DNA of 43,965 nucleotides from Actinomycetes bacterium (GCA_023252035.1 JAHEXQ010000003.1:1-43965); one strand, 5' to 3'; shown: positions 4,827 to 43,965, counted from the first letter of the stretch. Made by a program: numbers and translations. The notes: generated by a model from the letters alone, not told the origin.

Positions 4827-5059
4827 ATAGCAAGAACGTCCCCCATCCGGCTCCAATAAACATCACCCATCCTATAACACGGGCCGAGCCCCGGCAAAGC
4901 CGCGGGCTCTACCCGATTAACTAAATTCCAGGGTCCGTATTGTAGTCGGTTGTTTGAATCCGGCAAAGTCGCACGGGTATGGATTCCGGTGGCGGATGCA
5001 GGTAGAATCCCAGCAGGAACAAGCGAGTCCTGAAGTGAGTCGGAACCAAAGGAGGCCCG

Positions 5060-19760: not shown

Positions 19761-19797
19761 CGAGACATTCGCCCTCCTTCCCCATTTTATCCCGGGG

Positions 19798-22227
19798 CTA
19801 GAGCCAGTTTCGCGTGTCGGCGAGCTCCTCCAGGCCTTTGGCCGTTAACTCGACGACCGGGTACTGGCGGTCGTGGCTGCGGCGCAGCAGCTTCCGCTCA
19901 AGCATGGAGAGGACCCTCTTCTTGACCGCGGCCTGGGTGGCGTTGACCGTTCCGTAGAACTCGTAAGAATCGATACCGGCCTGCGCGATCCACTCCGACC
20001 TGGAGCCAGTAAGCACCTCCGCGATCTTCTCCGCGCCGACCGGGAAGGGCATATCCCGTACACAGCGGAGCACGGCCGCATCAATCTCCCCGGCGCTGGA
20101 ACGGTGTGCGGGCTTGTGCCGGATAGGCGCCTCTTTCTGCGCCGCGGTGCGGCTGGGTGCCAGGCTCGCCGCCGTTATCCCGACCGCCGCCTTTTTCCCC
20201 GCTGGCGTCAGGATGCAGACGGGATATTCCGCACCCCGGTTGCGCTCGACATAGCCGGCCAGGGCTAACTCCTCCAGGACCTCCTTAACCTCGTTCTGAC
20301 CTCGCGACACGAGGCCGAAAGCGGGGTTGCGGTCGAGGCCTCGCTCCAGGACAGCCTGGCTGCGCGAGCCGGTGACCACCTCCGCTATACGCCCCTTCCC
20401 CAAGGGGAATTTCAGGTGCCGCATACAGAGGAGGACCGGCAGCGCTACATCGGCCCGGCGTTGGAGGACGCCCCCCAGGCCGGTGGCAGTTTCCCTGCCC
20501 CGGCAATTGTCGCAGCTATCGCAGACCGGCTTATCTCGCTCCCCGAAGTAGTGCAGGATGTAAGCGCGGCGGCAAGTGTGAATATTTATAAACATCTCCA
20601 TGGCCTCGAGCCGCTCCTCCTCGATGGTCCGCAAAGCCTTCTGCCGATTCCAGTCTATGGGCACCCGGGCGAAAGGAAGCTGCTGACCCGGGACCTTCTC
20701 TATGCCGCGTCCCCGGAAGGGCGGCTCATAACCGATGAGGCCGGCGTCCCGCAGAGCCGCCAGCGCCCTGCGCACCTGTACCGGCTCCAACTTCGCATCG
20801 GAGGCCAGCGCCGGCAGGCTGACGTCGAAACGCCCGGGTGTCTCCAGGTCGGCGGAAGAGGAGAGGGCCTCGAAGATGCGCTTCGGGATATCTCCCCGCA
20901 AGCCAGGCAGCAGCTCCGCATAAGGAAGCTCCAGGGTCACCGCGATCCTGGCTTCCGCCGAGTACGCCCGCAGCACGCCCGCCCCATCCAGCAGCCGCAC
21001 CGCCGAACCCACCTGGCCCTCGGACATGTAGCCGTCGCACAGCTTTCCTATCTCCTTATAGGTGAGCAGGACGGGATTTTCCCGCATGGCCACGATGGTT
21101 TCATAGACCTCCTTCACCCGTTCCCGGTCGGGGTAGCCCACGTCGATGAAGAAGCGGCGGAGGTCTCCGTCTTCCGACGCATAGAGCAGCACGCATTCCG
21201 AGGTCAGCCCGTCGCGCCCGGCGCGGCCTATCTCCTGGTAATACTGCTCCACCGAACCGGGGTAGTTGTAGTGGATCACGAAGCGGACGTCTCGTTTGTC
21301 GATGCCCATGCCGAAGGCCGAAGTCGCCGCCACCACTCTCGCCTTGCCGCCGATGAAGGCCTCCTGTGCTGACGTCCTCTCGGCCGCTTCCATGCCGGCG
21401 TGGTATCCCACGATGGTCGGCTCCGTCCGCTTGAGCTCTCCGGCCAACCGCTCCACGGTCTTGCGCGTCCCCGCGTAGATTATCCCGCAACCGCCATGGG
21501 AAGTGAGGAATTCATGCAGGAATGCGAGCTTCCTTTCGTCCCCGAAAGTGGGACGTACGCTCAGGGTGAGGTTGGGCCGGTCGAAGCCGTGGACCCGGAC
21601 GTCCACCTCGACGGGCCTGAGTCCCAGCGAATCGACGATGTCGCGCTGCACCCTTGCCGTGGCGGTGGCCGTGAGCGCGGTGAGCGGCGGGTTGCCCGCG
21701 TGCTGCCGGAATTCCTTCAGGCGCCGGTAATCGGGTCTGAAATCGTGGCCCCACTCCGAGATGCAGTGGGCCTCGTCGATGGCAAGCCGCGCTATATCCA
21801 GTTCGCCCAAGGCCTTCACAAAAGAGGGATCGCGACATCTTTCCGGCGCCACATAGAGGATGTGGTATTCGCCATTGCGGCATGCTGCGAGCCGGGCCAC
21901 CTGCTCCTCGCGGCTGAGGCTGGAGTTGATGTAGGTGGCGGCGATGTGCCGGCGGGTCAGCTCATCCACCTGGTCCTTCATGAGCGAGATGAGGGGGGAG
22001 ACGACGATGGTCAAGCCGGACCCGAGGAGGGCGGGGAGCTGATAGACGAGCGATTTACCGCTGCCGGTGGGCATGACCAGGAGAAGATGGCGGCCTTGCA
22101 TTGCCGTGTGAATGGCCTCCTCCTGCCCGGGAAGGAACTCCCGGTAGCCGAAGCGGGAAGCGAGCAGCTCGCGCAGCCCAGTGGGCGTGTTCACGTTATC
22201 GTCGCCATCTTTTCCGCCTTGGTCCAT
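19798..22227 (-). CDS. recQ: RecQ-family ATP-dependent DNA helicase
   Basis: LLVMPTGSGKSLVYQLPAL, IDEAHCISEWGHDFRPDY, TATA, the zinc module CRRAYILHYFGE...CDSCDNC, and two tandem winged-helix-like C-terminal repeats. Confidence 0.9.
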   Translation of the reverse strand: MDQGGKDGDDNVNTPTGLRELLASRFGYREFLPGQEEAIHTAMQGRHLLLVMPTGSGKSLVYQLPALLGSGLTIVVSPLISLMKDQVDELTRRHIAATYINSSLSREEQVARLAACRNGEYHILYVAPERCRDPSFVKALGELDIARLAIDEAHCISEWGHDFRPDYRRLKEFRQHAGNPPLTALTATATARVQRDIVDSLGLRPVEVDVRVHGFDRPNLTLSVRPTFGDERKLAFLHEFLTSHGGCGIIYAGTRKTVERLAGELKRTEPTIVGYHAGMEAAERTSAQEAFIGGKARVVAATSAFGMGIDKRDVRFVIHYNYPGSVEQYYQEIGRAGRDGLTSECVLLYASEDGDLRRFFIDVGYPDRERVKEVYETIVAMRENPVLLTYKEIGKLCDGYMSEGQVGSAVRLLDGAGVLRAYSAEARIAVTLELPYAELLPGLRGDIPKRIFEALSSSADLETPGRFDVSLPALASDAKLEPVQVRRALAALRDAGLIGYEPPFRGRGIEKVPGQQLPFARVPIDWNRQKALRTIEEERLEAMEMFINIHTCRRAYILHYFGERDKPVCDSCDNCRGRETATGLGGVLQRRADVALPVLLCMRHLKFPLGKGRIAEVVTGSRSQAVLERGLDRNPAFGLVSRGQNEVKEVLEELALAGYVERNRGAEYPVCILTPAGKKAAVGITAASLAPSRTAAQKEAPIRHKPAHRSSAGEIDAAVLRCVRDMPFPVGAEKIAEVLTGSRSEWIAQAGIDSYEFYGTVNATQAAVKKRVLSMLERKLLRRSHDRQYPVVELTAKGLEELADTRNWL

Positions 22228-29996: not shown

Positions 29997-30034
29997 GTTA
30001 CAGCAGTTGTGTACAGCTTTCGCTTCGTCGAGTA

Positions 30035-30337
30035 TCATGCCCTTGAAGCTGAAGGTTTGGGTCTCGCGTCCACAAAGATCGGCCGCACGGAAATACCCAA
30101 GCTATTGCTAACAGCTCTGGCCGCTTTCTCGACGCGGTCTTGTCTGTCGGTTTCAAAGTCCCAGTCACGAAAACCAATTACTAGGAAATAGCCGAAGCGC
30201 ACGCCTTCGGCGCGCATATAGGTAGGTGTTTGAGTTGTCAAACCATGCCAGAACTTTGTATTATTCATGAGCTTAACCTCAATAAGGGCTCGCGCTTGCC
30301 ATCCTCGGCTAAATTTGAAGTCAACGGGCCCGCGGCC
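30035..30337 (-). pseudogene. 5'-truncated PD-(D/E)XK-like nuclease remnant
   Basis: The protein-like part is GRGPVDFKFSRGWQARALIEVKLMNN... (D...E-V-K). The first ~22 codons of the track ORF are antisense to the TIR remnant and look non-native. Confidence 0.4.
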
Positions 30338-30341
30338 CGCA

Positions 30342-30656
30342 TTGGATTCATTCGAGTTGACGATCGGTGACAGTCTTCGCCGGAAGATCGACAACGGGTT
30401 GTCCAAGAGTAGATTTGGTATTGTCGTTCTATCGCAGGCATTTTTTGCAAAAGGCTGGACAAACTACGAATTGGATGGGCTTGTCACAAAAGCAGTAAGC
30501 GGCGAACAGATTCTGTTGCCCATCTGGCACAACATATCGAAGCAGGAGGTTATAGCCTACAGCCCATCGCTTGCCGATAAACTCGCTCGGAGCACCACGA
30601 CCCACACAATACAAGAGATAGCGCAAGAAATCGTTGAGGTCATAAGGTGCACATGA
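30342..30656 (+). pseudogene. 5'-truncated TIR-domain gene remnant
   Basis: LDSFELTIGDSLRRKIDNGLSKSRFGIVVLSQAFFAKGWTNYELDGL...ILLPIWHNISKQEV matches the central and C-terminal parts of bacterial TIR domains. No FISH/beta-A segment appears in any upstream frame. Confidence 0.65.
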
Positions 30657-30721
30657 GGACAAGGCGCTCCAGCAGATCATTCAAGTTGCCCACAGTTGAA
30701 AGGAAAAGCTGAGGTTCTATC

Positions 30722-31567
30722 GTGCTAGCTTTGGATCTTTGGGAGCATGACATCAGCGTTGATCTCGGATATCTTGCGGTTCACATTTGTGAGTGTTACG
30801 CGGTGCCGCTAGGACCGATAAGACCCCACGACCTTAAGGAATTAAATGATCGCGATTTTGATCAAGCCATTGTAGTGAACGCAAAAGGCGATTTGATTGG
30901 CGGGATAACTGCATGGCGCCTGGAAGATCTGCGACGAAACAATCAAGAACTTAGCCAAGAGGAAGCCGTTAGCGGCTTCAAAGAAATTCACAACCATTGT
31001 TCCCTTGATGTTCTCCTCGAATTCCTATCAGCTAGCAAATTCGGCTTTATCGTAGAAGAACATGATGCTGAGCAGCTAGGGACCTATGCTTCTGTCTTGG
31101 GGCTATTAACCATTGCTGATCTGAATAAACGATATTTCCGGTCTCTCCTTTATATGATTCTAGCCGAAATAGAAATGGCCTTCGCCGGACTGATTATGCA
31201 GTGCTGCACAGACCCCAATAATAAATGGCTTGAGAAGCTCGGGGATGATAGCTTGAGGCGCATTCTCGGATTCTGGCAGCTCTCAAAATTCAGAAATGTG
31301 GAAGTTGACCCAATCGAATATTGTAATCTAACGGACCTTCTTGTGGTAACAAAGAAGAACCCCGAAATAGGCAGGATTCTTGGAAACGAATCCAGCGCAT
31401 GCATCAAAAGAATTCGTAAGCAGCTCCCGGAATGGAGAAATCGCGTGATGCATCCCGTTCGGCCACTGATAACTTCGCAGGGCGACATAGCTGCTCTTAG
31501 AAACGTCCTCGCAGACATCTACAGCTTAGGAAAAAGGATTTACGAGATTCAACCCAAATCGAGGTAA
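30722..31567 (+). CDS. CBS-pair-like N-terminal domain fused to a HEPN-like C-terminal domain (RNxxxH)
   Basis: GTG start follows GAGG. CBS-like segments are AIVVNAKGDLIGGITAWRLEDL and FGFIVEE...VLGLLTIADLNK. The helical C-terminus carries WRNRVMHP (R-N-R-V-M-H at 31436-31453). Confidence 0.55.
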   Translation: MLALDLWEHDISVDLGYLAVHICECYAVPLGPIRPHDLKELNDRDFDQAIVVNAKGDLIGGITAWRLEDLRRNNQELSQEEAVSGFKEIHNHCSLDVLLEFLSASKFGFIVEEHDAEQLGTYASVLGLLTIADLNKRYFRSLLYMILAEIEMAFAGLIMQCCTDPNNKWLEKLGDDSLRRILGFWQLSKFRNVEVDPIEYCNLTDLLVVTKKNPEIGRILGNESSACIKRIRKQLPEWRNRVMHPVRPLITSQGDIAALRNVLADIYSLGKRIYEIQPKSR

Positions 31568-31625
31568 GTCTCAAAGCGGTTTCTAGGAACCTTTGCTTCA
31601 ACAATCCAACACCAACAATCTGGTA

Positions 31626-31634
31626 TGTGATAAT
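31626..31634 (+). promoter_or_regulatory. Possible extended -10 promoter element for the SNF2 operon
   Basis: TGTGATAAT (TGn + GATAAT) lies about 80 nt upstream of the ATG at 31714. The -35 region is only weakly matched. Confidence 0.25.
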
Positions 31635-31713
31635 AAGGGCGGAGCAATGCAACTTTGAACCATGCAGGGACGGGGCTAGTTGATCTCGACGTCTGTGAAA
31701 GAAAGCATGGAAA

Positions 31714-34701
31714 ATGGGTGAGAATTACCTTACTTTCAGATTGCGATACTTAGCAGAGAAGATGACGCTCAAACGCGCATCTTCCGATGCCGCAAAACTC
31801 AACCAGAGTATTGGCCGTGCTACCGTTGACCTTAACCCCCATCAGATAGAAGCATCTATCTTTGCTTTCAAGAGCCCGCTAGCCAGAGGGGCTATTCTCG
31901 CTGATGAAGTCGGCCTTGGTAAGACCATTGAGGCAGGCTTAATCATTAACCAGCTTTGGACTGAGGGAAGGAGAAAGATTCTCATCCTTTGTCCCGCTTC
32001 CATAAGAAAACAATGGGAAGAAGAGCTCTATACCCATTTCGATCTTCCCGCGAAAGTGATTGACGGCCAGCGCTTCAATACACTCGTTTCTGGCGGGCGG
32101 AAGAACCCACTAGCAGACGAAGGGATTATTATCGCATCTTTGGATTTCGGATACCGAAAGGCAGCGGAGATAAAGACAACTCACTGGGATCTCGTCGTTA
32201 TTGATGAGGCCCATCGGCTAAGAAACGTGTGGAAAGCTGACAATAAGGTGGCAAGGAGAATTAAGGAGGCCATATCCGGCCCTAATGTTAGAGGGAAAGT
32301 CCTTCTTACAGCCACACCGCTGCAGAACAACCTGATGGAGCTCTTTGGCCTGGTGAGCTTTATCGACGAACAGGCTCTGGGCACAAACTACTCCTTCAAG
32401 AAGAAGTTCCTCTCTCCGGACGAGCAGGAATTGGTTGTCAACCTCGAAGATCTTCGCGAAAGACTTATCGGCAGAATCAATCCAAAAACAGGGAATGTGA
32501 CGAGTGGGATCATTATGCGATCTCTAAGAAGGCAGGTTCGGGAATACATTCCATATACTGAAAGAACCAGTATGACCGTGGACTTTGAGCCTAATGATGA
32601 CGAGTGGGAGTTATATCAGTTCGTCTCTGACTATCTGGCTCGCGATGATATTTTGTCCGTCGAGACAAAACAGCGCGCCCTGATGATTCTCATATATAGG
32701 AAAATACTGGCCAGCTCTTCCTTTGCTATCGCTGGTACGCTGAAGAGCCTGATCTCCCAACTTGAGCGGAAACTCCAACTAGTAAGAGCCAGCCAGCAAC
32801 CAGCGCAAGCCTCGGACATTAGCGAAGACGCTAAGGAAGACAATGACGACGCTTACCTTGAAGAAATGGAAGAGGAAGAAGAGCGCGCGGAGGAAGAGGC
32901 CGAAATCGAGAAGCAAGAGATCACTGAAGAAGTCTTGGCCGCTGAAATCAACGAGCTGAAGAAGTACTACGACCTAGCTATAAGGATTTCGAAGAACGCC
33001 AAGGGAGAGGCTTTGGTTAATGCCCTTCGCAATATTTTTACGGAAGCGGCAAAGAAAAACTGGCCTCAGAAGGTGGTCATCTTCACAGAATCCAGACGAA
33101 CCCAGAACTATCTCTATGACCTTCTATCCCGAAATGGTCATGACGGGCAAATAGTCCTTTTCAATGGATCAAACAACCATAAAGATGCAAACATTGCATA
33201 CGCGGAATGGTGCAAAGAATTCCCAGCCATGGCCAGAACCGGCAATCGCGCAACAAACATAAGGCAGGCTCTGATCCACGACTTTCGGAAGAACAAGAAG
33301 GTCTTTATTGCGACAGAGGCTGGGGCTGAGGGCGTCAACCTGCAGTTTTGCAACATCGTCGTTAACTACGACTTACCCTGGAATCCTCAGAGAATCGAAC
33401 AGCGTATTGGAAGATGCCATCGCTATGGTCAGAAACGCGACGTGGTCGTGGTCAATTTTGTCAACCGGAAAAACGCTGCAGACGAAAGACTCTATGACAT
33501 TCTGGCGAAGAAGCTTAAGCTCTTCGACGGTCTTTTTGGTTCATCAGATGAAATCATGGGCGCTCTAGGATCCGGAATTGACTTTGAAAAAAGGATACTC
33601 GGAATATACCAAACCTGCCGTGATCCTGAAGCAATCCAGCTAGCTTTTGATGACCTGCAGCAGGACCTCGAAGTGGAGATCAACGACCGCTTCATCCAAA
33701 CGCGCCATCTATTGATGGAGCATTACGATGATGACGTGAGACGTAAGCTGAGATTGAGAAATGACCAATTGAGCGAACAGCTCTCCGAGATTGATGAAGA
33801 AATAAAAGAGATTGTTCAGATAGCGCTCGGCGATCATCTAAAGCCAACCGATGATCCCAATATCTTCAAAGTGAACTCTCTACCACCAGAGCTGGTTTTG
33901 AAGGTGCCGGAAGAGCTTACAGGCCAACTGGTCAGCTTTAGACCAATCAGCGTTGAAGAAAAGGATAAAGGAATTGGTCGCCTACATCTCTTCCATCCGT
34001 TGGTTTCAGAGATCATTGAAGTAACCAAAGCGCAGGAATTGAGCAATTTCCTTTCCATCTCTTTCGAGTATACAAAAGGCCAACACAGAATCAGTCTCCT
34101 TAATGATTTTGTAGGCCAGATAGGCTATCTGTTTCTCTACAAAGTGATCTTTGAGGGCATTGAAACGATTGAATACTTGCTTCCGATTGCTATTGCGTAT
34201 CATGGGGACGAATGGGTTCCGCTATCCAAAGAGCAGACAGAGAAGCTCTTGACGGTTACCCTGAGCGAGAACGGAATAGCGGAAAACACCCCAGGAGACA
34301 TAAGCAGAACTATTGAAACCGCTCATGAATCACGAAAGGAATCCCTTACCAATTATTTGAAGATAGTTAACGAAGAGTATTACGACCAGGAACGTGAAAG
34401 GTTAGACCTTTACACTGAAGAAAGTCTAATGGAGCTGGAAGATCAGGTTGATAAGAAGAAGCGCGAATGGAATGAAGCAAAACGCAAACTATCGCGTGCT
34501 AACAACCACGAAGAGAGAATGAGCTTAAGGGCTGGGGTTTATAAGCTCGAAAGGGAATATCGGCGTTTGCTTTCCAAGAGAGATCAGGAGAATTTGAAAT
34601 CTTTTGAAGAAAAGGACCTACAGCTTAAAAAGCTTGAAGGCAGGCTGAGATTTAAACTTGCCGATAGCTTGATACTTAGAGCCGAGTTCGAGATTAAGTA
34701 A
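31714..34701 (+). CDS. SNF2-family (SF2) helicase/translocase with a long C-terminal extension
   Basis: LNPHQIEA, ILADEVGLGKT, VVIDEAHRLRN, LLTATPLQNNLMELF, FIATEAGAEGVNLQ, QRIGRCHRYGQ. There is an acidic insert between the lobes and an approximately 350-aa coiled-coil-rich C-terminus. Confidence 0.9.
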   Translation: MGENYLTFRLRYLAEKMTLKRASSDAAKLNQSIGRATVDLNPHQIEASIFAFKSPLARGAILADEVGLGKTIEAGLIINQLWTEGRRKILILCPASIRKQWEEELYTHFDLPAKVIDGQRFNTLVSGGRKNPLADEGIIIASLDFGYRKAAEIKTTHWDLVVIDEAHRLRNVWKADNKVARRIKEAISGPNVRGKVLLTATPLQNNLMELFGLVSFIDEQALGTNYSFKKKFLSPDEQELVVNLEDLRERLIGRINPKTGNVTSGIIMRSLRRQVREYIPYTERTSMTVDFEPNDDEWELYQFVSDYLARDDILSVETKQRALMILIYRKILASSSFAIAGTLKSLISQLERKLQLVRASQQPAQASDISEDAKEDNDDAYLEEMEEEEERAEEEAEIEKQEITEEVLAAEINELKKYYDLAIRISKNAKGEALVNALRNIFTEAAKKNWPQKVVIFTESRRTQNYLYDLLSRNGHDGQIVLFNGSNNHKDANIAYAEWCKEFPAMARTGNRATNIRQALIHDFRKNKKVFIATEAGAEGVNLQFCNIVVNYDLPWNPQRIEQRIGRCHRYGQKRDVVVVNFVNRKNAADERLYDILAKKLKLFDGLFGSSDEIMGALGSGIDFEKRILGIYQTCRDPEAIQLAFDDLQQDLEVEINDRFIQTRHLLMEHYDDDVRRKLRLRNDQLSEQLSEIDEEIKEIVQIALGDHLKPTDDPNIFKVNSLPPELVLKVPEELTGQLVSFRPISVEEKDKGIGRLHLFHPLVSEIIEVTKAQELSNFLSISFEYTKGQHRISLLNDFVGQIGYLFLYKVIFEGIETIEYLLPIAIAYHGDEWVPLSKEQTEKLLTVTLSENGIAENTPGDISRTIETAHESRKESLTNYLKIVNEEYYDQERERLDLYTEESLMELEDQVDKKKREWNEAKRKLSRANNHEERMSLRAGVYKLEREYRRLLSKRDQENLKSFEEKDLQLKKLEGRLRFKLADSLILRAEFEIK

Positions 34702-34715
34702 CCAGGAGCATTTAC

Positions 34716-37700
34716 ATGCAAGAGCAACCTGAATTATTAGAACCAAAGACTTATACAAACACCGGCCTCTTCGCTGACTATTTCTTATCTGAAAAGTTGC
34801 CGCAAGAACGGGCGTGGTTTGACGCCCTTGAGGACCCCAAGACCCAAGAGCTATTCGACGAGCTACGGGAGCTCTTTAGGTCCAAGCAGGATGCACTTAA
34901 AGGTTCCAATGAAGCTCAGACCGAGGACGAGTTTATACGCCCAATCCTTGGCTTGCTAGGCTTCTCGTATATAGTGCAAACACCAACGAAGACTATGGGG
35001 CGCACTCAAACGCCGGACTATGCTTTGTTCGCTGACGATCAAGCCAAGCAAAAAGGCTTTCAAGGGGTCAAGCAGAACAACTACTCAAATGCCCTAGCTA
35101 TAGCTGATGCTAAATATTGGGACCGCCCGCTCGACAAGAAACTTAAAGATAGTAGGGACACTCTTACCAATCAAAACCCCACCTTCCAGATTTCCAGCTA
35201 TTTGATTTCGACGAAAACAAAGTGGGCCATTCTCACTAATGGAAGACTCTGGCGCCTGTATTCTCGCGATCAAAGCCAAACGATGGGCGAATATTATCAG
35301 GTCGACTTAGCACAGGTGCTGGAATCCGGTGAGCTGAGCGACTTCCTTTATTTCTACCTGTTCTTTAGAAAAGAGGCTTTTCAGCCCGCGCCGGCTGAAG
35401 CCTTTTTAGACCAAATCATCAAAGCTAGCATCGATTATGGCGCGAAGCTCCAAGAGAACCTCAAGAAGGAGATATTCGAGAAGATCTTCGTCTATTTCGC
35501 CAAAGGTTTTGCTAATTGGCGAGGGCAAAATGGAGAAAGTATAGAGACCCCCGAAAGCCTGAAAGAGATATTCGATAATACCTTGATTTTGCTCTACCGA
35601 CTGCTGTTCATTCTTTATGCAGAATCCCGCGTCCTCTTGCCCGTGAGAGAGCGGGACAAGTATTACACGAAAAGCCTAGCTAAAATCAAAGGCGAGATTA
35701 AACAAGACATCGAGGGGCGCAAGAGTCTAAGTAAGGTTTCGACCGATTATTGGGATGACCTGGTTAACCTCTTCCACATAATCGATAGAGGGGACCCCGA
35801 CCTGAATATTCCCAAATACAATGGTGGGCTCTTTTCTAGAACGCATGCGTTCCTGGAGACCAACAAGATCGCTGATTCATACTTGGCAGAGGCTATTTAT
35901 CTCTTGACGACTTATTTTGACGAAAGCAGAAAAGCCTGGGTGTTTGTTGACTTCAAATCCTTAGGTGTCAAACAGCTTGGATCCATCTACGAAGGCTTAC
36001 TGGAATTCCATTTAAGCATTGCTAGAGAGGAATTAGCAGTCGTAAGAGAAAAGGGCCGAGAGAAATATGTACCAGTCGGCCAAATCGCCAAAGGCCAAAA
36101 GGATACAGGTGCTCGTATTAAGCCTGGCGACCTCTACTTTGAAAACACCAAAGCGGAGCGCAAAGCCACGGGCTCATATTACACGCCGGATTACATAGTC
36201 AGATACATAGTCGAAAACACCGTGGGACCCTCAATCCAAGAAATTGAGGAATCCTTCTCCAAGCAGGTTGAAGTTCTAAAGCGTGACCCGAGATACAAGA
36301 ATCAGTCCGCAAAATGGAAGAATAAGGAATTAAAAAAACATGACCCTGCGCTCAAGGCTCTTGAACTGAAGATATGCGACCCAGCCATGGGTTCGGGTCA
36401 CTTCTTGGTTTCGACGGTGGATTTCATTGCCAACCGTATCTTTGAGATATTGACCAAATACTCTGACCAGATCTATTTTGGCCAAGAGCCCTACGAAAGT
36501 CTATTGTTCCAACAGATTCAAGAAATCCGCAAACACATTTTAGAAGAGATGGACAGGCAGCAAGTAACGATTGAGAAGGAAAAACTGGAAGACGATAAAG
36601 TCATCATACGGCGAATGGTCATGAAACGATGTATTTTCGGCGTTGATTTGAATTATCTTGCCGTCGAACTTTCAAAGCTTTCCCTTTGGCTAAACTCATT
36701 CGCGGTCGGTGCTCCTTTGTCGTTTCTCGACCACCATCTTAGGTGGGGGAACAGCTTAATAGGGGCAAGCATTGATGGTGTGCAAAGAGAAATGGAAAAG
36801 AGCATCTTCGGCTCTCGCTTCGCGGGTTTGCTTTCTGCTACGAGCGCTATGAGAAAGGTGGGCGAACTGACGGATTCAACATTTTTCGAATTGGAGGAAA
36901 GCAAAAAGGATTTCGAACAAGCCCTAGAGTGGTTGTCACCCTATAAGAGAGTTCTCAGTATCTGGACAAGCCACTATTTCGGTAACGATGGAGCGAAGGA
37001 TTTAATTGACCAAGGCCGCATTGACCCCGATAGGTTTGAAGAAGACAGGGATCAACTCATTGGCCAGGACTTGAGAGTTGTCGATAGAGCAACAACCATT
37101 GAGAAGGAAAAGGGTTTTTTGCACTGGGAACTCGAATTCCCGGAAGTCTTTTACAGCGCCACAGGGAAAATGACGAACGCAGGATTCGATGCAGTTATTG
37201 GAAATCCTCCTTACATTAACGCGAACGAGCTCAATAAGCAGCTATCTCAATTCGAGAAGCCTTATTGGCGTATTTGTTTCTCATCAGCATCAGGTGCATA
37301 TGATGCTTACGTCTTGTTCCTGGAGCAAGCACTAAGGCTGACTCGCACGGGAGGTTTGGCCTCCTTGATTACACCTAATAAGTTCCTTTCGGCACCTTAT
37401 GGTGTAGCTTTGCGTGAATACCTATACAAAAACGCAAAGATGATGCGCCTCTTAGACGCTTCAAGAGCTAGGGTCTTTGATGATCCTTCCGTGTATCCGG
37501 TTGTAACGGTTTTCGAGAATACGTGCCCCCTTGATCGCTATAAGATACTCATTGAAACCATTCGCGAGAAAGACAATGAGAGATTCTCAGAGTTTAGTTT
37601 TCACGAGAGCGATAATTTAACGAAGCTGCCTGACAAGATTTGGGGATTCCTATTTTCGGAATATCTGCCGCTGATAGTCAAAGCTACGCAGACTTCGTTG

Positions 37701-38816
37701 AGCCTAGAAATGTGCTCGACCGTTCGTGCATCCAGTTCGGCAACTGAAGCTGATGCTTATGAGAAAGCATTAACAAATAGGCCGGGTAAAACCATGAAGA
37801 AATTCCTAAACACAGGGCTAATTAATCGGTTTGGCAACACGTGGGGCATTCAGCCTTTAGTGCACAAGGGGCATACATTCAGGACCCCTTATATTGATTT
37901 GGCTCACGATGTCGTAAGTGACAATCGCAGGGCACAATATGAAAAACCAAAAATCATATTTGCCAAGATTGCCAAGCGGATTGAAGCGTACTTAGACAGA
38001 GGCGGCACATTCGCTTCGGCAAATACGAATTTTGTTTATGATTCTGAATTCGACCTGGGCTATTTACTCGCGATTCTAAACAGTAGATTGATGTCGACCT
38101 TGTATCAGGGATATTTCGGCGCGCTAATCATGAGTGGCGGCTACTTTCAGTTCCAGGCACCACAATTAAGAGTCCTCCCGATCCGCAAAATTGATTTTAC
38201 GACGCCAACAGTGGAACGAAAGAAGAAGGCTGAAATATTGGAAGCAATGTATGCAGATTGTCGGGTCGATTCCGCTTTCGATAAGATTAATAGCTTCATC
38301 GATGAGCTGCTTTCTAAGAAGCACAGCCTAGGTCCTCAATCTGCGCGAACGACGAAAAGCGAAATCCTCGACATAAAGAAAAGGGGCAAAAAAGAAACAT
38401 CCCTTAGCCAGGCAGACGTGGTCCATGATTTCCTAGCTTTCTTGTCCAACCAAATGACTGAAATGAATAAACAAAAGCAAATGGAGGCTTCGGGATTCAT
38501 AACATACCTAGAAAGGACAATTGGCGGTGATGTTGGAAATCTAGCAAATAGATCGTTTGTCGTAGGCTATTACAATCATTCGATTGAAGGGCTGCTGGAT
38601 GTTTTGCATCGAAATGAAGATAGGCTCCGGGGGTTCGATTCGAAATCACGTGGCGACCAAGAAAGACTCGAAAAGGAATTCAACAAGAGCAAGCAGAAGC
38701 TCGATCCTCTAAAATCACAAATCGAAGGAACCGACCGCCTCATCGAGCAAATTGTCTATAAGTTATACGGCTTGACGGATGAGGAAATCGAAATTGTCGA
38801 AAGCTCTCAACGATGA
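34716..38816 (+). CDS. Large Eco57I/PglX/MmeI-like N6-adenine DNA methyltransferase with an N-terminal PD-(D/E)XK-like motif
   Basis: GSYYTPDYIV (36171 onward), CDPAMGSGHFLV (36378 onward) and IGNPPYI (NPPY at 37203-37214). The N-terminus has TPDYALF (PD at 35013-35018) and ADAKYW (D-A-K at 35106-35114), then WAILTNGRLWRLY. The C-terminal ~500 aa is TRD-like plus coiled coil. Confidence 0.9.
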   Translation: MQEQPELLEPKTYTNTGLFADYFLSEKLPQERAWFDALEDPKTQELFDELRELFRSKQDALKGSNEAQTEDEFIRPILGLLGFSYIVQTPTKTMGRTQTPDYALFADDQAKQKGFQGVKQNNYSNALAIADAKYWDRPLDKKLKDSRDTLTNQNPTFQISSYLISTKTKWAILTNGRLWRLYSRDQSQTMGEYYQVDLAQVLESGELSDFLYFYLFFRKEAFQPAPAEAFLDQIIKASIDYGAKLQENLKKEIFEKIFVYFAKGFANWRGQNGESIETPESLKEIFDNTLILLYRLLFILYAESRVLLPVRERDKYYTKSLAKIKGEIKQDIEGRKSLSKVSTDYWDDLVNLFHIIDRGDPDLNIPKYNGGLFSRTHAFLETNKIADSYLAEAIYLLTTYFDESRKAWVFVDFKSLGVKQLGSIYEGLLEFHLSIAREELAVVREKGREKYVPVGQIAKGQKDTGARIKPGDLYFENTKAERKATGSYYTPDYIVRYIVENTVGPSIQEIEESFSKQVEVLKRDPRYKNQSAKWKNKELKKHDPALKALELKICDPAMGSGHFLVSTVDFIANRIFEILTKYSDQIYFGQEPYESLLFQQIQEIRKHILEEMDRQQVTIEKEKLEDDKVIIRRMVMKRCIFGVDLNYLAVELSKLSLWLNSFAVGAPLSFLDHHLRWGNSLIGASIDGVQREMEKSIFGSRFAGLLSATSAMRKVGELTDSTFFELEESKKDFEQALEWLSPYKRVLSIWTSHYFGNDGAKDLIDQGRIDPDRFEEDRDQLIGQDLRVVDRATTIEKEKGFLHWELEFPEVFYSATGKMTNAGFDAVIGNPPYINANELNKQLSQFEKPYWRICFSSASGAYDAYVLFLEQALRLTRTGGLASLITPNKFLSAPYGVALREYLYKNAKMMRLLDASRARVFDDPSVYPVVTVFENTCPLDRYKILIETIREKDNERFSEFSFHESDNLTKLPDKIWGFLFSEYLPLIVKATQTSLSLEMCSTVRASSSATEADAYEKALTNRPGKTMKKFLNTGLINRFGNTWGIQPLVHKGHTFRTPYIDLAHDVVSDNRRAQYEKPKIIFAKIAKRIEAYLDRGGTFASANTNFVYDSEFDLGYLLAILNSRLMSTLYQGYFGALIMSGGYFQFQAPQLRVLPIRKIDFTTPTVERKKKAEILEAMYADCRVDSAFDKINSFIDELLSKKHSLGPQSARTTKSEILDIKKRGKKETSLSQADVVHDFLAFLSNQMTEMNKQKQMEASGFITYLERTIGGDVGNLANRSFVVGYYNHSIEGLLDVLHRNEDRLRGFDSKSRGDQERLEKEFNKSKQKLDPLKSQIEGTDRLIEQIVYKLYGLTDEEIEIVESSQR

Positions 38817-40783
38817 CCATACAATTTCTTATTAACGATGACGGTACTCCCTTTAAATCGCCTGATATACAGACATTGCGTGCGGCATTAGATTCGCTCG
38901 GGAATAATGAACGGGAAGAGTACCGCAATCAAAACGCTTCAGCTATTGCACGACACGATGCCGTCAAATTCCTGATTGTATCTGGACCCGGAACGGGCAA
39001 GAGCCACCTTTTCCTAAGCAGGATTGACTATTGGTTTCAAAAAGACCAAGACGCAAGCGTTGTTGTCACAAGCTTTGTTCGAAAGTTAGTGGCTGATTTG
39101 CAGAATGATATTGAGAGCGACGAAAGACTAACCGCCGAGCAAAAAAACAGAATTTCAGTATCCACCTTGCATAAGTTTGCTCGCAGCATTGTAGAAAAAA
39201 ATCACGGTACGGCCGAATGGCGATTTAGTCCGCATTTTCGGATCATAGGACAGTCTTGGAAGGAAATAGTGTGGGGTGATGTGCTTGCTTTCCATATCAG
39301 CGTGGACGGCGGTGTCTATACATGGCAGGAATTTGAGAAACAATTGCATGATCATTGCTTTGAGGAATCCGATGAATGGAAGGTGTTAAAAGAAACCTAT
39401 TTTAGGCTCTGCCAATTCTATAATGCGGCTGGATTTGCTGATTTGATTTTGCATGCCACAAAGGCATTAGCAGAAAATTCTACTCTAAATGAAGATGCTT
39501 ATTTCATAGTTGACGAGTATCAGGATTTCAATCTTGCTGAAGAAGCTCTTATAAACCAATTGGCAGATAATCCCAAAGGCCTACTTGTCGTTGGCGATGA
39601 TGAGCAAGTCCTTTACGAAGAGTTAAAATCAGGCAAACCCACGTTGATTCGCAACCTGTATAAAAACACAGACTATGTCAACGGAATGCTTCCTTTCTGC
39701 AGTAGGAGTAGCCACCACATTACAAAAACTGTTGACCATTTCATTCAACAGCTCAGGGAGGCAGAATCGATAGAAAAGATTTACTTGCCCTTAACCGCCG
39801 ATACCGATGAACCGAAAGTCCAGGTTATTGCTTGTGCCACTTCGGCGACTGCTGTCGATTATATTAAGAAATTTGTTCAGGATAACAAGGCAGAAGTTGA
39901 CGAGCGCAAGACTAAATTGGAATCCGGCGAAGCAAAGGATGCCTTTCTGCTCATCTTGACTCCTGCTAAAAAAGTAAAGTTCTTCGGACAATCAAAAGAA
40001 GAAATCGAGCGTATCGTCGCGGAATATCAACCCGAAAACCGTTATTTCTCAGAGGACTATTACAAAGTGTTGAGTTATTACTCCCTAGCAAACAATCCCC
40101 GTAATAATTTCACCTTTCGAAAGGTGTTGTACTACGAAGATATTTCAACAGCAAGAGTACATGAATTGATCGAAATCGCTATGCAGAAAAATCAATCCTT
40201 TTGCGAAGTTAATTCCGATGAAATCAAGAATGCACAAGAGAAGTGTAACAATATTAAGACGATTCTTGAAAATGAGGGTACAGCCACTGAAACAAAGATA
40301 GAGGACATTGCCCGGCTTGTCTCCATAGCTGATAAGGCCAGACTCAAGGAAGATATTTCACAAAAATCCATTAGCCAAGAAGAAATTGCAAAGATTGAAC
40401 ACGAAGAAGAGGAAGAGGCGGAGTTAGAAGAAATTGAAGTAAAGAAAATGGGCGCTGTTGAGCTAATCACCATAGTTGGCTCAAAGGGTTTATCTGCGGA
40501 TCATGTAGTTATTATCGGTTTTGATAATGTAAATATGAGCCGGGTAACGAAGAATGCGTTTTATGTTGCCATGGCCCGCGCTAGAAATAGTTTACACATT
40601 CTTACTGCCCTAAAATCGGGGGGCGCGGAACAAGCACACGACTTCCTAAATCAATTGCCAGATAATCATACCGAATATCACAGTTATAAGAAAAGCGGCC
40701 GAGAAACAAATCCATTGCGAGGCAAACAAGGATTCAGGAGCTATCTCAATAACATAATTTCTATGTCAAGGCGAAGGCGATAA
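38813..40783 (+). CDS. UvrD/Rep-like SF1 helicase
   Basis: ATGA overlap with the methyltransferase stop. SGPGTGKSH, VSTLHKFA, IVDEYQDFN, VVGDDEQVLY, GSKGLSADHVVIIG, YVAMARARNSL. No recognisable nuclease domain. Confidence 0.85.
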   Translation: MTIQFLINDDGTPFKSPDIQTLRAALDSLGNNEREEYRNQNASAIARHDAVKFLIVSGPGTGKSHLFLSRIDYWFQKDQDASVVVTSFVRKLVADLQNDIESDERLTAEQKNRISVSTLHKFARSIVEKNHGTAEWRFSPHFRIIGQSWKEIVWGDVLAFHISVDGGVYTWQEFEKQLHDHCFEESDEWKVLKETYFRLCQFYNAAGFADLILHATKALAENSTLNEDAYFIVDEYQDFNLAEEALINQLADNPKGLLVVGDDEQVLYEELKSGKPTLIRNLYKNTDYVNGMLPFCSRSSHHITKTVDHFIQQLREAESIEKIYLPLTADTDEPKVQVIACATSATAVDYIKKFVQDNKAEVDERKTKLESGEAKDAFLLILTPAKKVKFFGQSKEEIERIVAEYQPENRYFSEDYYKVLSYYSLANNPRNNFTFRKVLYYEDISTARVHELIEIAMQKNQSFCEVNSDEIKNAQEKCNNIKTILENEGTATETKIEDIARLVSIADKARLKEDISQKSISQEEIAKIEHEEEEEAELEEIEVKKMGAVELITIVGSKGLSADHVVIIGFDNVNMSRVTKNAFYVAMARARNSLHILTALKSGGAEQAHDFLNQLPDNHTEYHSYKKSGRETNPLRGKQGFRSYLNNIISMSRRRR

Positions 40784-40835
40784 GCCCCCGATGAACGTGT
40801 CTAAATGCCCTGCTACCTGCAGTTTTATCGATTAC

Positions 40836-41793
40836 TGTTAGCGGGCACTCAAATGCGGACACCTAAGAACACTTGAAAACCGGCCACTTGAGGTAGGTAA
40901 TAATGGGCGCCACACTCCTTTCAGGAAGGAGTGATGGCCTTGACAAACTACCTCAAGATGGAGAAAAGAAGCAGCGTAGAGACACTCTTAGAGCTGGGAT
41001 GGAGCTACCGGCGCATCGAACGGGAGACCGGGGTGCGCAGGGAGACGGTGGCGCGCTACGACAAATCCCGACATTCAAATGCGGCCAAAGTGCCCACCGG
41101 CTCTGGTGAAGAGCCCCCAAATGCGGCCAAAGTGCCCACCGGCTCCCGTGGATCCAGGAGCCAGGCCCGGCCCTGGCACGAAGAGATCGCGGCGGGGCTT
41201 TCAGGGGGCCTCACCTGCCAGCGCATCTGGCAGGATCTCGTGCAGGATCACGGATATGTAGGTTCCTACGAGTCGGTAAAGCGCTACGCGAAGCGCATCA
41301 AGCTCACCCACCCCGAGGTGGCCGACGTCTTGCACGCCCCTCCCGGGGCCGAGGCCCAGCAGGATTTCTTCCGCGGGCCACCCACCTTTCGGGCCGATAC
41401 GGGCCGCTGGGGCCGTCCCTGGGTCTTCGGAATGGTACTGGCCTGTTCCCGCTACTCCTACGAGGAGGCGGTCTGGTCCCAGGACATCACATCCTTTATC
41501 CGCCTGCACGAAAACGCCTTTCGTGCCTTCGGCGGGATTCCCAGGGTAGTGAGGCTGGATAACCTGAAGAGCGGAGTGGCCAGAGCGGCCCTGTACGACC
41601 CGGATATCAATGCGGCCTATGCCTCTTTTGCCACTCACTACGGATTCACCCCGTTGCCCTGTGCTCCCGGAAAGCCCGAGGAGAAGGGGAAGGTGGAACG
41701 GGCGGGCGCCTACCTGAAGGGCAACGCCCTGGCCGGCCGGCGCTTCGACAGCTTGGCCGAGCTGAACGAGTACCTTACCCGCTGGAACTGCCT
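40836..41793 (+). mobile_element. IS21-family element 1: left end plus truncated istA
   Basis: Composition returns to GC-rich at about 40.8 kb. TGTTAGCGGGCAC...GCGGACAC motifs lie upstream of istA. The element is interrupted near 41.79 kb. The left boundary is approximate. Confidence 0.5.
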
Positions 41794-41803
41794 ATTCTGG
41801 TGA
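40931..41803 (+). pseudogene. istA: IS21-family transposase IstA, C-terminally truncated
   Basis: N-terminal HTH (LLELGWSYRRIERETGVRRETVARY). DDE region (QQDF, RLDN, KGKVER). It ends ...LNEYLTRWN then CLFW*, about 100-200 aa short of full-length IstA proteins. Confidence 0.75.
41076..41145 (+). repeat. In-frame tandem duplication inside istA
   Basis: The 28-mer CAAATGCGGCCAAAGTGCCCACCGGCTC occurs at 41076-41103 and 41118-41145 with a 42-nt period, giving NAAKVPTGS twice. Confidence 0.9.
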
Positions 41804-42124: not shown

Positions 42125-42889
42125 CTAGTCATCTCCGCTCTCCGGACCTTTCTGCCCCTTCGGATCCTGGCGCTTTCGCATGGATGCGCCCTTTAGCACG
42201 ATGCGGTGGGCGCTGTGCACCAGGCGGTCCAGGATGGCGTCGGCCACCGTCGGCTCCCCGATCACCTCATGCCAGGCGGAGACCGGAAGCTGCGAGGCCA
42301 GGATGGTGGCACGGGAGGAGTGGCGGTCCTCGATCACCTCCAGGAACTGCCTCCTCTCGCCATCCGTCAAGGCGGCAAGCCCCCAGTCATCGACCACCAG
42401 CACGTCGGCCCGCTCCAGCTTGGCCAAAAACCGGGGCCAGGACCCATCGGCCTGGGCCATGAGCAGGGCGGAGAATAGGCGGGGAGCTCGGAAGTAGAGG
42501 GCCGAGTATCCCTTGCGCAGCGCCTGGTCGGCCAGGGCGCAGGCCAGATAGGTCTTCCCGGTGCCCGTGGGCCCGACTATCAGGACCGCGGAGTGAGATG
42601 CCACCCAGCGGCAGTCGGCCAGCGAGCGCATGAGCGCTTGGTCCAGCCCGCGGCCGGAGCGGTAATCGATATCCTCCATGGAGGCCGGGATGCGCAGCTT
42701 GGCCGCCCGCATGCGCCGCTCCAGCTTACGGTTCTCTCGGTCCGTCCACTCCCGGTCTACGAGCATGCCCACCCTCTCCTCAAAGGAGAGCCCCTCGTAC
42801 GAGGAGAGCTCCGTCTGTTCAGAAAGGGCGTCCCGCAGCCCGAAGAGCTTCATGGCGTTTAACTTCTCTAGGGTCTGGGAAAAAAGCAC
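42125..42889 (-). CDS. istB: IS21-family helper ATPase IstB
   Basis: GTG start follows GGAGG. Walker A is VGPTGTGKTYLA and Walker B is VLVVDDWG. 254 aa. It starts 12 nt after the istA stop. Confidence 0.9.
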   Translation of the reverse strand: MLFSQTLEKLNAMKLFGLRDALSEQTELSSYEGLSFEERVGMLVDREWTDRENRKLERRMRAAKLRIPASMEDIDYRSGRGLDQALMRSLADCRWVASHSAVLIVGPTGTGKTYLACALADQALRKGYSALYFRAPRLFSALLMAQADGSWPRFLAKLERADVLVVDDWGLAALTDGERRQFLEVIEDRHSSRATILASQLPVSAWHEVIGEPTVADAILDRLVHSAHRIVLKGASMRKRQDPKGQKGPESGDD

Positions 42890-42901
42890 GTTCTTCCTCC
42901 T

Positions 42902-43965
42902 TTAGTTGTAGTAGGCGGGGCCGCGCACGTTGCCGTGCACAGGCGCCGACCTATCGGGGTCCCGATCGTCGCTTACCCTGTCCAGGCCGGCGTGAAGGAT
43001 GGACTTCACGCTGCGGTAGGAGAAGGCGCCGGCCTGAAGGGCTCTGGCGCAAGCCGCCTCCATGCGGTCTTGCCCGAACTTGCCGGAGAGCCGAATGATC
43101 CCCAGGCATGCGCGGTAGCCCATCTCCGGATGGGGCTTTGAGTTCATGATCCCTTGAACCAGGCGTGCGGTGGCCGGACCGGTCTGCTCAGCCCAGGATA
43201 TGATGCGCGACGGCGGCCAGGCCAGATGCGCCCGGTGCGATGCGGGGCGGTGCTCGTCCGCCGTGGTGTATCCGCCCCTCTGAAAACCGCGCTTGTGAGA
43301 AGCCACCCGCCTGCCCTTTTGAAATATCTCCACGGTCGAAGATGTCAGCCTGGCCTCCACCCGCTCACCGATCAGGCGGTGGGGCACGCTGTAGTAGTGG
43401 TGCTCGACCTCTATGTGGTAGTCGATGCTCACCTTGGCCTTTTTCCAGGTGGCCAGCTCGTACCGTTTCTCGGGAAGCGGTTTTAACGCCGGCAGGTCGT
43501 GGGAAAGAAACAGCTCCCGCCTGCTCTTGCCAAGCACCTTCATCTTGCGGTCGTTGAGCCAGGTAATGCGTTCGGCGATCGCCAGGTTGGCCTCGGCGAT
43601 GGAGTGAAAGACCCGGTGGCGCAGGGGGGCGAGAATCCAGCGCTCAGCCTGCAAAACCGCGTTTTCCACCTGCGCCTTGTCCCTTGCTTTTCGCACCCTG
43701 GCCGGTATGACCGCACAGCCGTAGTAGGCGGTCATATCATTGTAGGTGGGGTTGAGATCCGGCTCGTAGCGGCAGGCATGGGGGACGCCCACCCTTACGT
43801 TATCCGGGACCAGGATCTCGTTAACCCCTCCGAAGAACTCAAAAGCCCGGATGTGGGCGCCTATCCAGTTGGCAAGCTCCTGCGAGGCCACGGCACAGGC
43901 GTAGGTGTAGCTGGAGAACCCCTGGGCGGCCACGAACATCTGGGCTTCGCTTACCTCTCCCGTTT
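42902..43965 (-). CDS. istA: IS21-family transposase IstA (partial; N-terminus beyond the right edge)
   Basis: The frame stays open to the window end. VPDNVRVGV...DKAQVENAV (DDE D and E regions) and a long C-terminal domain. The sequence differs from element 1 IstA. Confidence 0.9.

Follow-up and report, generated by a model that had tools for sequence, protein, structure and literature searches.

We analysed a stretch of 43,965 nucleotides (nt) from an Actinomycetes bacterium (GCA_023252035.1 JAHEXQ010000003.1:1-43965; hereafter 'the window', meaning the whole stretch), in which positions 31,714 to 40,783 encode a SNF2 ATPase, a large N6-adenine (N6A) methyltransferase (MTase) and a UvrD-like helicase, one directly after the other on the same strand. 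The original prediction for this region was a translationally coupled operon outside all named defence systems. In our analysis the locus is of the restriction-modification (R-M) kind, and its three-gene combination was not found in named systems or in the open-access literature searched. It is probably a type IIG-like R-M enzyme accompanied by two motors of separate evolutionary origin, with the helicase carried as a cassette.

Genes of the locus

Calling of open reading frames (ORFs) reproduced the positions of all three genes exactly. Together with the domains predicted for the central protein they are laid out as follows:

31714..34701, + strand: SNF2 gene, 995 amino acids (aa), a RapA-like/DrmD-like Swi2/Snf2 ATPase with its motor core at about residues 33-695
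34716..38816, + strand: MTase-fusion gene, 1366 aa
34716..35300, + strand: PD-(D/E)xK nuclease domain, about residues 1-195 of the fusion protein
35301..38816, + strand: helical linker, gamma-class N6A MTase and TaqI_C-type target-recognition region
38751..38816, + strand: MTase tail with the recombination junction; tail sequence IVYKLYGLTDEEIEIVESSQR, ending in the stop
38813..40783, + strand: UvrD-like helicase gene, 656 aa, a compact superfamily 1A (SF1A) helicase of the UvrD/Rep/PcrA type with intact ATPase/helicase motifs

The close packing described earlier holds: 14 nt containing an AGGAG separate the SNF2 TAA from the MTase ATG, and the MTase TGA overlaps the helicase ATG as ATGA. The catalytic motifs were likewise recovered in the SNF2 protein (GLGKT 67, DEAH 164, QRIGR 563), the MTase (DPAMGSGHF 555, NPPY 830) and the helicase (GTGKS 60, DEYQ 234), and Pfam bears out the three families (SNF2-rel_dom with Helicase_C; Eco57I with TaqI_C and N6_Mtase; UvrD-helicase with UvrD_C).

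A putative restriction-modification fusion enzyme

The central protein had been called a PglX-like methyltransferase, a label that overlooks an N-terminal PD-(D/E)xK motif and has to be replaced: the protein is a fusion of nuclease, MTase and target-recognition domain (TRD) in the layout of a type IIG enzyme. The nuclease signature is complete (E66/E70, P100-D101, D131-A132-K133). In an alignment with 26 homologues the N-terminal pattern NEAQTE...PDYALF...AI(A/x)(D/E)AK is conserved, E66 and D101 are invariant, and the (D/E)xK is retained in most sequences. A PDB sequence search with the three proteins was uninformative for the N-terminus of the MTase and the C-terminus of the SNF2 protein, and both were therefore modelled. 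The AlphaFold 2 (AF2) model of fusion residues 1-480 has a mean confidence (pLDDT) of 87.5, and its three best PDB matches in Foldseek are BpuSI (3s1s), DrdV (7lo5) and HsdR (3h1t), with probabilities of 0.98-1.00 and modest E-values; further PD-(D/E)xK nucleases come next in the list. Among the PADLOC profiles, REase_MTase_IIG PDLC03613 matches residues 9-502 (8.3e-73) and DrmMI the MTase core only (5.4e-87); several REase_MTase_IIG models also match the part that follows the nuclease domain. Pfam identifies Eco57I (1.1e-34) and, at residues 1055-1156, TaqI_C (6.9e-11). An exact-sequence look-up of the MTase gave no match.

The closest homologues of the fusion protein align over only about 68% of the query, which is consistent with a swapped specificity domain. 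Three relatives, with 64%, 43% and 41% identity, are single genes amid unrelated neighbours (loci L089, L090 and L091), so this enzyme lineage can stand alone, as type IIG enzymes do. Typical of type IIG enzymes is site-specific methylation together with cleavage at a fixed distance, stimulated by S-adenosylmethionine and independent of nucleoside triphosphates (NTPs). Present here are endonuclease and methyltransferase domains in one polypeptide and the enzyme's own TRD (TaqI_C), with which a separate S subunit is unneeded. With a SNF2 ATPase linked to it, this protein may not be NTP-independent. Since the fusion includes a nuclease domain, the locus appears to have its own effector already and to count as an R-M variant.

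The SNF2 motor and its partners

The SNF2 protein has the parts of a RapA-like Swi2/Snf2 ATPase: N-lobe (Pfam SNF2-rel_dom, 4.8e-38), Helicase_C, motifs I, II and VI, and RapA-type C-terminal domains. Its full-length AF2 model (pLDDT 76.7) finds RapA (8spg) as the best Foldseek match (9e-27, about 1070 columns). Such a RapA-like architecture has been reported for BREX BrxHII and BR-system helicases (PMC12839542). The DISARM profiles align with the motor core only, in PADLOC (DrmD PDLC02619, 1.5e-188) as in NCBIfam, where DISARM_DrmD_b reaches 633 bits against a cutoff of 950 and DISARM_DrmD 299 against 610. Residues 709-995 are modelled as an alpha+beta domain with a long coiled-coil hairpin (863-978), and neither the model nor the conservation of the C-terminal region of about 300 residues shows a conserved nuclease-like motif.

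Orthologues with 82% and 72% identity adjoin related Eco57I-type R-M genes (L088, L174), and therefore the pairing of this SNF2 protein with an R-M enzyme is inherited. At 35-46% identity the picture is dominated by type III R-M: 53 loci extend at least 4 kb downstream and could be assessed, and 47 of them have type III Mod and/or Res there, 38 having both. The SNF2 and type III genes often enclose further genes, and a related type IIG gene was found in 0 of 80 metagenomic loci at this level of identity. The SNF2 family is a recurrent extra motor of R-M operons, mostly of type III.

Loci L092-L171 very commonly show the order SNF2, embedded genes, type III Mod, type III Res (for example L096 10001-19475 and L159 10001-22285); in L159 the SNF2 and Mod genes are separated by a Ppl/mad3-like ATPase and an AbiU-like gene. 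We found no named system for these operons in the open-access literature searched. One locus (L147 14565-16472) has a UvrD-like helicase, 24% identical to that of the window, between the SNF2 gene and a type III Mod-Res pair and is a further combination of SNF2, superfamily 1 (SF1) helicase and R-M.

A conserved helicase behind unrelated restriction modules

The third protein belongs to SF1A by its Walker A (GTGKS 60) and DEYQ (234) motifs, its motifs III-VI and its 1A/2A core (Pfam UvrD-helicase, 1.3e-24). A profile of its family searched against the PDB places UvrD, Rep and PcrA closest (UvrD at 5.5e-31), with GajB at 4.9e-10. The family is small and discrete, a search of 1.84 billion cluster representatives giving 127 at E<=1e-30, and it is strongly conserved: in a set of 25 sequences 40% of the positions reach 90% conservation or more, and GDDxQ, KGL and (T/x)RAR are invariant or nearly so in 31. 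Homologues are 66-77% identical across phyla and occur in metagenome-assembled genomes (MAGs) labelled Peribacteria, Saccharibacteria, Komeilibacteria, Deltaproteobacteria, Burkholderiales, Actinomycetota, Dehalococcoidia, Omnitrophota and others. The family was not found in plasmids (PLSDB), phages (INPHARED) or IMG/VR, where relatives are only about 20-27% identical; a plasmid or phage origin of the helicase, which we considered, is accordingly unsupported.

In 17 of 24 assessable, non-redundant loci of close relatives, restriction or modification genes come first and the helicase closes the series, with the same orientation and little spacing. These upstream modules are of at least seven unrelated kinds, among them:

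type I HsdR/HsdM-S or HsdS: L013, L010, L016
EcoRI-type MTase with GmrSD_N-HNH: L004, L018, L015, L020, L012
ApaLI restriction endonuclease (REase) with MTase: L021
MTase with TdeIII REase: L027, L028
Mrr-like nuclease: L025
type IIG enzymes with or without SNF2: the window, L001, L008, L172, L173

In a tree of the helicases the Eco57I-linked copies form one clade and the remaining partner types are interleaved. Helicases can be 73-88% identical while their partner proteins are 22-64% identical. No description of this R-M-linked UvrD-like family turned up in the open-access literature searched, which does not prove its absence; the promiscuous helicase cassette appears to be undescribed and to be the more interesting feature of the locus.

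Two stand-alone copies of the helicase (L003 12883-14666 and L006 8273-9650) adjoin PTPS (QueD-type) genes; L006 also has GTP cyclohydrolase I nearby, and L003 a radical SAM gene. These neighbours may be a coincidence or reflect a link to 7-deazaguanine/pterin genes.

The junction between methyltransferase and helicase

The ATGA overlap had been taken as a sign of operon integration. It comes instead with the helicase cassette, as part of a tail common to MTases of low identity. The MTases of L001 and L008 are only 23-31% identical to that of the window, and all three end in ...YxLY(G/D)L(T/S)xEEIxIVE(S/H)S(Q/K)(R/K) and the stop, overlapping through ATGA with a helicase that starts M-T-I-(Q/R)-F. 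Tail and ATGA junction are common to the window, L001, L008 and L173. In the last of these, whose MTase is about 24% identical, the final 21 nt of the window MTase gene, GTCGAAAGCTCTCAACGATGA, recur identically together with the ATG. The IVESSQR ending is present in 0 of 26 true relatives of the window MTase, and the cassette tail was seen only in helicase-linked loci. Because the tail follows the helicase and not the MTase lineage, the ATGA coupling is a property of the cassette.

The change of affinity can be located within the window gene itself, where the upstream part of the tail resembles true MTase relatives and the last 30-45 nt plus ATGA belong to the cassette. Over the last 120 nt, successive 30-nt blocks have 19, 19, 20 and 10 matches (out of 30) to L088, and 12, 16, 21 and 23 to L008. 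Judged by this pattern, the junction shows what is probably a recent insertion of the helicase into the MTase lineage of the window.

In L008, copies of the MTase tail (2897-2962 and 4935-5035) flank the helicase. The upstream copy completes the MTase ORF, and the original tail, ending in LYQLYDLTEDEIAIIEKSSKNTG and the stop, lies directly after the helicase stop, with 79% nucleotide identity over 47 nt to the upstream tail. This layout is as would be expected from single-crossover insertion of a unit made of tail and helicase. Displaced-tail repeats were sought in all close-relative loci and found in L008 only. At the other end, about 100 nt 3' of the helicase stop are conserved at 83-94% between loci with different partners, in two groups:

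conserved 3' non-coding flank, group one: L014, L016, L027
conserved 3' non-coding flank, group two: L004, L018, L012, L015

The mobile unit therefore reaches about 100 nt beyond the helicase stop codon. A small downstream GIY-YIG ORF was considered as a component of the cassette and rejected, being found in L001/L002 and L006 only.

Two further observations concern the tails. Those of L008 have an attL/attR-like layout, without any recombinase. L173 (7551-7630) has the cassette tail, ending in LVYKLYGLTPEEIGIVESSQR and the stop, ahead of the helicase, but the called MTase ORF stops 79 nt earlier and is in another frame; a frameshift or decay of the junction may account for this.

Recurrence of the three-gene order

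The three genes had been predicted to act as one unit. What stands of this is the order, which recurs elsewhere; the genes themselves are not a fixed, co-evolving set. SNF2, type IIG enzyme and UvrD-like helicase follow each other in at least seven loci and in unrelated versions (including L001, L172, L173, L040, L084 and L035). The nearest relatives of the window helicase (75-77%) all reside in operons of the order SNF2, (embedded gene), type IIG, helicase (L001, L172, L173). The SNF2 proteins and MTases of these operons are only 22-31% identical to those of the window, against 73-88% for the helicases; some of the SNF2 proteins carry an N-terminal PLD domain, and the MTases match PADLOC REase_MTase_IIG with up to 1190 bits. 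The closest relatives of the window's SNF2 and MTase (L088, L174), in turn, have no UvrD-like gene. The triad order is real but modular. Helicases only about 25% identical to the window's also follow an MmeI-type enzyme (L048) and an Hma-like operon (L033), and other distant ones neighbour HsdM/HsdS, D12 MTases, EcoRV, AlwI and DUF499 genes, mixed with housekeeping genes.

Several of these loci hold additional genes. Bro-N and NYN ribonuclease-domain genes are embedded between the SNF2 and type IIG genes in L172 (2630-3463) and L173 (3537-4022), operons that are homologous apart from these insertions, which resembles the embedded-defence pattern of Hma, BREX, DISARM and type I R-M. L088 (14144-17908) has two other genes in the place of the UvrD-like gene: one for an EVE-domain protein, which reads modified bases, and one for an SF1 helicase of 1032 aa that carries a PLD domain and matches the Mokosh MkoA/MkoC models; ArdC, DUF932 and DUF2958 in the same region suggest a conjugative element. 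The Hma-like operon of L033 (1448-11773) consists of a SNF2 gene with NOV_C nuclease followed by 901-aa and 847-aa genes, and ends in a compact UvrD-like helicase that belongs to the broader family.

Comparison with named systems

As predicted, no catalogued system was found to cover all three genes; of the candidates weighed (Hma, BR systems, BREX, Gabija and DISARM), every one fails on defining parts. Nearest in kind are the type IIG/IIL enzymes (BpuSI, MmeI, DrdV, the Eco57I family), with which the window fusion shares the order nuclease, helical linker, gamma N6A MTase and TRD, the occurrence of solitary relatives, and an N-terminal model that matches BpuSI and DrdV best. Classical type IIG enzymes require neither NTP nor motor. 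Unlike these, the fusion enzyme is co-encoded and apparently co-inherited with a SNF2 ATPase, and an SF1 helicase comes after it.

Motors are familiar from other R-M systems. Type ISP (LlaGI, LlaBIII), type I and type III enzymes combine nuclease, superfamily 2 (SF2) motor, N6A MTase and TRD, and their cleavage is coupled to translocation. The SNF2 and R-M pair of the window has the same module set, but its motor is a separate SNF2/RapA-like polypeptide and its nuclease is on the MTase chain; the SNF2 family is, moreover, usually a third gene beside complete type III Mod-Res pairs. In CglI and NgoAVII, R-M comes with a separate SF2 helicase-like ATPase that translocates on double-stranded DNA and activates a site-specific nuclease (PMC4267653, PMC5737866, PMC5861437). 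The likeness lies in the separate motor and, for the triads of version A (L001, L173, L040), in a nuclease that is likewise a PLD domain. The differences are that the CglI motor is of the DEAD-Z1 kind and not SNF2, that its MTase is separate and small, and that there is no SF1 helicase.

The prediction had seen in the SNF2 gene and large N6A MTase a reminder of DISARM, and the best named matches in PADLOC and NCBIfam are indeed DrmD and DrmMI. These two are reportedly the class 1 DISARM module described by Ofir et al. in 2018, and as in class 1 DISARM the window SNF2 gene lies directly upstream of a large Eco57I-type N6A MTase. DISARM requires its DrmABC core, and in a class 1 system of Serratia drmD and drmMI have a share in protection that is separate from drmABC (10.1101/2021.12.28.474362). 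The locus differs from DISARM in that no DrmA, DrmB (DUF1998) or DrmC (PLD) is present in the window ORFs scanned or in the nearest relatives, the precomputed Pfam lists of L088 and L174 being free of the drmA/DUF1998/PLD core triplet. It differs further in the nuclease motif of the MTase, whose N-terminus matches type IIG models, and in the UvrD-like gene that follows. The PADLOC scan covered 17 window ORFs, the largest ones included, and agrees with the prediction in giving no match to DrmA, DrmB, DrmC, PglZ, BrxC or BrxL; the window ends in IS21 debris. BREX requires PglX together with the PglZ phosphatase and the BrxC ATPase, and in addition BrxL or other genes of the subtype. Membership fails on the missing PglZ, BrxC and BrxL in the window ORFs, and NCBIfam BREX_1_MTaseX scores 109 bits against a cutoff of 500.

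Gabija consists of GajA, an OLD-family ATPase-TOPRIM nuclease, and the UvrD-like helicase GajB. Here too a UvrD-like SF1 helicase accompanies a nuclease, GajB models are the top PADLOC matches of the helicase, and GajB, reported to sense DNA termini and hydrolyse nucleotides (PMC11232893), is a possible functional analogue. The similarity to GajB is generic, however (PADLOC 6.8e-25), and no GajA/OLD nuclease partner was found. Hma and BR are also R-M-like multi-gene systems around a RapA-like SNF2 protein and an MTase, and embedded genes are common in them. Hma comprises HmaA (SNF2 with NOV_C nuclease), HmaB (a 5-methylcytosine MTase) and HmaC (an ATPase) (PMC8565338, PMC11232893). The window SNF2 matches HmaA through the shared motor only (1.5e-56) and has no NOV_C, its MTase is of the N6A kind (NPPY), and its third gene is an SF1 helicase without a match to HmaC. 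BR systems combine a DUF499 ATPase, a DUF1156-type MTase with nested TRD and a SNF2 helicase(-nuclease) (PMC12839542); the window has neither DUF499 nor DUF1156, and its MTase is of the Eco57I/TaqI_C type. An echo of both systems exists among distant relatives of the helicase, one of which follows the Hma-like operon of L033 while two others have DUF499 neighbours.

Proposed mechanism and alternatives

In the arrangement that we consider probable, a type IIG-like enzyme with two motors of separate origin, the fusion enzyme would mark host DNA at its recognition site by methylation and cut unmarked incoming DNA. The SNF2 protein, a putative double-stranded DNA translocase inherited with the enzyme lineage, would give the site-bound enzyme long-range, ATP-dependent communication or clear proteins from the DNA. 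We infer this role because separate or fused motors act so in CglI/NgoAVII and in type ISP, type I and type III enzymes; in CglI/NgoAVII motor assistance of R-M has biochemical precedent (PMC4267653, PMC5861437). The helicase cassette would have recombined into the conserved ...YxLYGLTxEE... motif at the 3' end of the MTase gene, bringing along the last codons and the ATGA, which would make translation of the helicase depend on whichever R-M gene lies upstream. Because a helicase of about 70% identity serves unrelated type I, type II, type IIG and Mrr/GmrSD modules, it should act on a product common to all of them, broken or nicked DNA. Most likely it would unwind from restriction breaks, so that invader DNA is not religated or repaired and is then degraded.

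Several points weigh against this proposal. We infer the nuclease, MTase and both ATPase activities from motifs alone, and the two motor roles are predictions as well. End processing is one of several partner-agnostic possibilities for the helicase, next to a GajB-like end-sensing NTPase, enzyme recycling and pure hitch-hiking. No recognisable R-M neighbour is present in 7 of the 24 loci of close relatives (L003, L006, L014, L017, L022, L024, L026); the helicase is thus able to exist or function by itself. The taxon labels of its relatives derive from MAG bins. The displaced tail is known from a single locus, L008. Helicases of only about 25% identity hold the same position after SNF2 (with or without PLD) and Eco57I-type genes (L040, L084, L035), which argues for a more integrated three-part machine than 'add-on' implies. 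Finally, IS21 cuts the island that carries the locus, and further native genes may have lain downstream.

A bolder view of the helicase can be entertained, speculatively and with a rather low probability: an integrase-less, self-propagating R-M cassette, locked to an addictive module and acting as a universal, partner-independent booster of restriction. Such a cassette would insert into the conserved 3' ends of MTase or specificity genes while supplying a replacement tail and an overlapping start codon, and the gain could come, for example, from DNA-end processing in lineages such as bacteria of the candidate phyla radiation (CPR).

That the three proteins instead form one obligate, co-evolved machine with two translocases that only resembles R-M, as in the original prediction, we regard as unlikely. 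The gene order in at least seven loci, unrelated versions and helicases of about 25% identity included, would fit such a machine, as would the tight or overlapping spacing, the UvrD-like gene between SNF2 and type III Mod-Res in L147, and the embedded Bro-N and NYN genes, a trait of other multi-gene defence systems (10.1101/2024.01.29.577857). Yet each gene occurs without the others: MTase relatives are solitary, the nearest SNF2 and MTase pairs have no helicase, and type I, type II and Mrr/GmrSD modules without SNF2 have the helicase behind them. The junction, moreover, points to a recent insertion of the helicase into the window's MTase lineage.

Less likely again is that the UvrD-like gene is mainly a selfish parasite of R-M operons with little or no part in defence. 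By replacing the 3' end of an essential, addictive MTase or specificity gene it would become hard to delete, and an insertion that brings a replacement tail and leaves the displaced original is reminiscent of Campbell-type integration. The extreme conservation of the helicase across phyla while partners change, its conserved 3' flank and the stand-alone copies among housekeeping genes would suit a parasite too. Against this, no recombinase, Rep or transposase domain occurs in the 656-aa protein or consistently beside it, the family is missing from sequenced plasmids, phages and IMG/VR, and the displaced tail is a single example. The intact motifs imply selection for enzymatic activity, and distantly related UvrD-like genes that independently hold the same position suggest a function useful to R-M.

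Least probable is a decayed class 1 DISARM, a non- or partly functional DrmD-DrmMI fragment left after IS21 removed or separated DrmABC: the top profiles (DrmD, DrmMI and, in NCBIfam, DISARM_DrmD_b), the IS21 elements abutting the 3' end where the window stops and the separate share of drmD and drmMI in protection in Serratia (10.1101/2021.12.28.474362) speak for it, but DrmD_b stays far below its cutoff and covers the motor core only, L088 and L174 have no helicase/DUF1998/PLD triplet on record, the MTase N-terminus matches type IIG nucleases and not a modification-only enzyme, a helicase and not DrmA follows at a junction shared with complete modules such as L001 that end there, and type III R-M is the main association of the SNF2 family.

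Should the two-motor reading be true, R-M systems would be platforms that acquire interchangeable ATP-driven motors and not closed units of two or three genes. A SNF2 protein accompanies type III operons in most loci surveyed, and sometimes a type IIG enzyme, and one may ask what enzymes regarded as self-sufficient gain from an additional motor. The helicase, about 70% identical from CPR to Proteobacteria and Actinobacteria, sits behind at least seven unrelated modules with a junction of its own; its absence from plasmid and phage collections of cultured organisms may explain why we found no description. A partner-agnostic enhancer of restriction would have value as a tool and bears on how restriction breaks become irreparable, and a true booster would be a new class of mobile accessory for bacterial immunity. 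For annotation, DrmD and DrmMI profile matches without DrmABC should not be labelled DISARM.

Genomic setting

The three genes reside in a region whose composition the original prediction had not remarked on: over about 30.0-41.0 kb of the window the GC content drops from about 63% to about 45%, and the island is therefore foreign. It is a horizontally acquired defence islet, clipped at both ends. Its surroundings are as follows:

up to 29996: host AMP-ligase gene, ending at the left side of the island
30000..40845: low-GC island by composition profile, GC about 42-49% against a host background of about 62-64%
30267..30656, + strand: 5'-truncated TIR-domain gene fragment (Pfam TIR_2; PADLOC PDC-S66 3.3e-50, ThsB 5.4e-31)
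30722..31567, + strand: ORF281, 281 aa, directly upstream of the SNF2 gene
40846..41803, + strand: left end of an IS21-family element, with terminal repeats at 40846, 41072 and 41114 and a truncated istA (40931-41803)
42125..43939, - strand: second IS21-family element, with istB (42125-42889) and istA (42902-43939)

The TIR fragment matches only profile positions 171-280 of 282 in PDC-S66/ThsB, the C-terminal 110 positions, and is a remnant of a ThsB/PDC-S66-like defence gene outside the triad. Without its N-terminal half it abuts the host AMP-ligase gene, which the missing half would overlap; the left edge of the island is therefore the truncation point. On the right, the IS21 terminal repeats start about 60 nt past the helicase stop and cut the native 3' flank there. 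The first element (NCBIfam transpos_IS21, 4.7e-68; repeat family D5) has the second nested in it (IS21_help_AAA 1.9e-76, transpos_IS21 1.4e-45), and the window stops within the latter. We found no tRNA gene, island-flanking direct repeats or att-like sites in the window; its Rfam scan gave no match, and searches for promoters and terminators did little or no better than chance.

ORF281 has no family match in Pfam (even at E<=10), PADLOC or NCBIfam and no tblastn match in any related locus fetched. An RNRVMH (Rx4H-like) motif lies near its C-terminus, and its HEPN-like resemblance is a visual impression only.

The GC-rich host region has, about 8 kb away from the island, a gene pair on the - strand (18006-22227) that looks like a second defence pair unrelated to the island. 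The 809-aa product of 19798-22227 matches the DpdF (1.9e-151) and PsyrT (1.1e-116) helicase models, and the 584-aa product of 18006-19760 the candidate model PDC-S62 (2.4e-57). An ORF of 401 aa at 11736-12941, also in the host region, has a weak Cas4-like PD-(D/E)xK match (5.1e-09).

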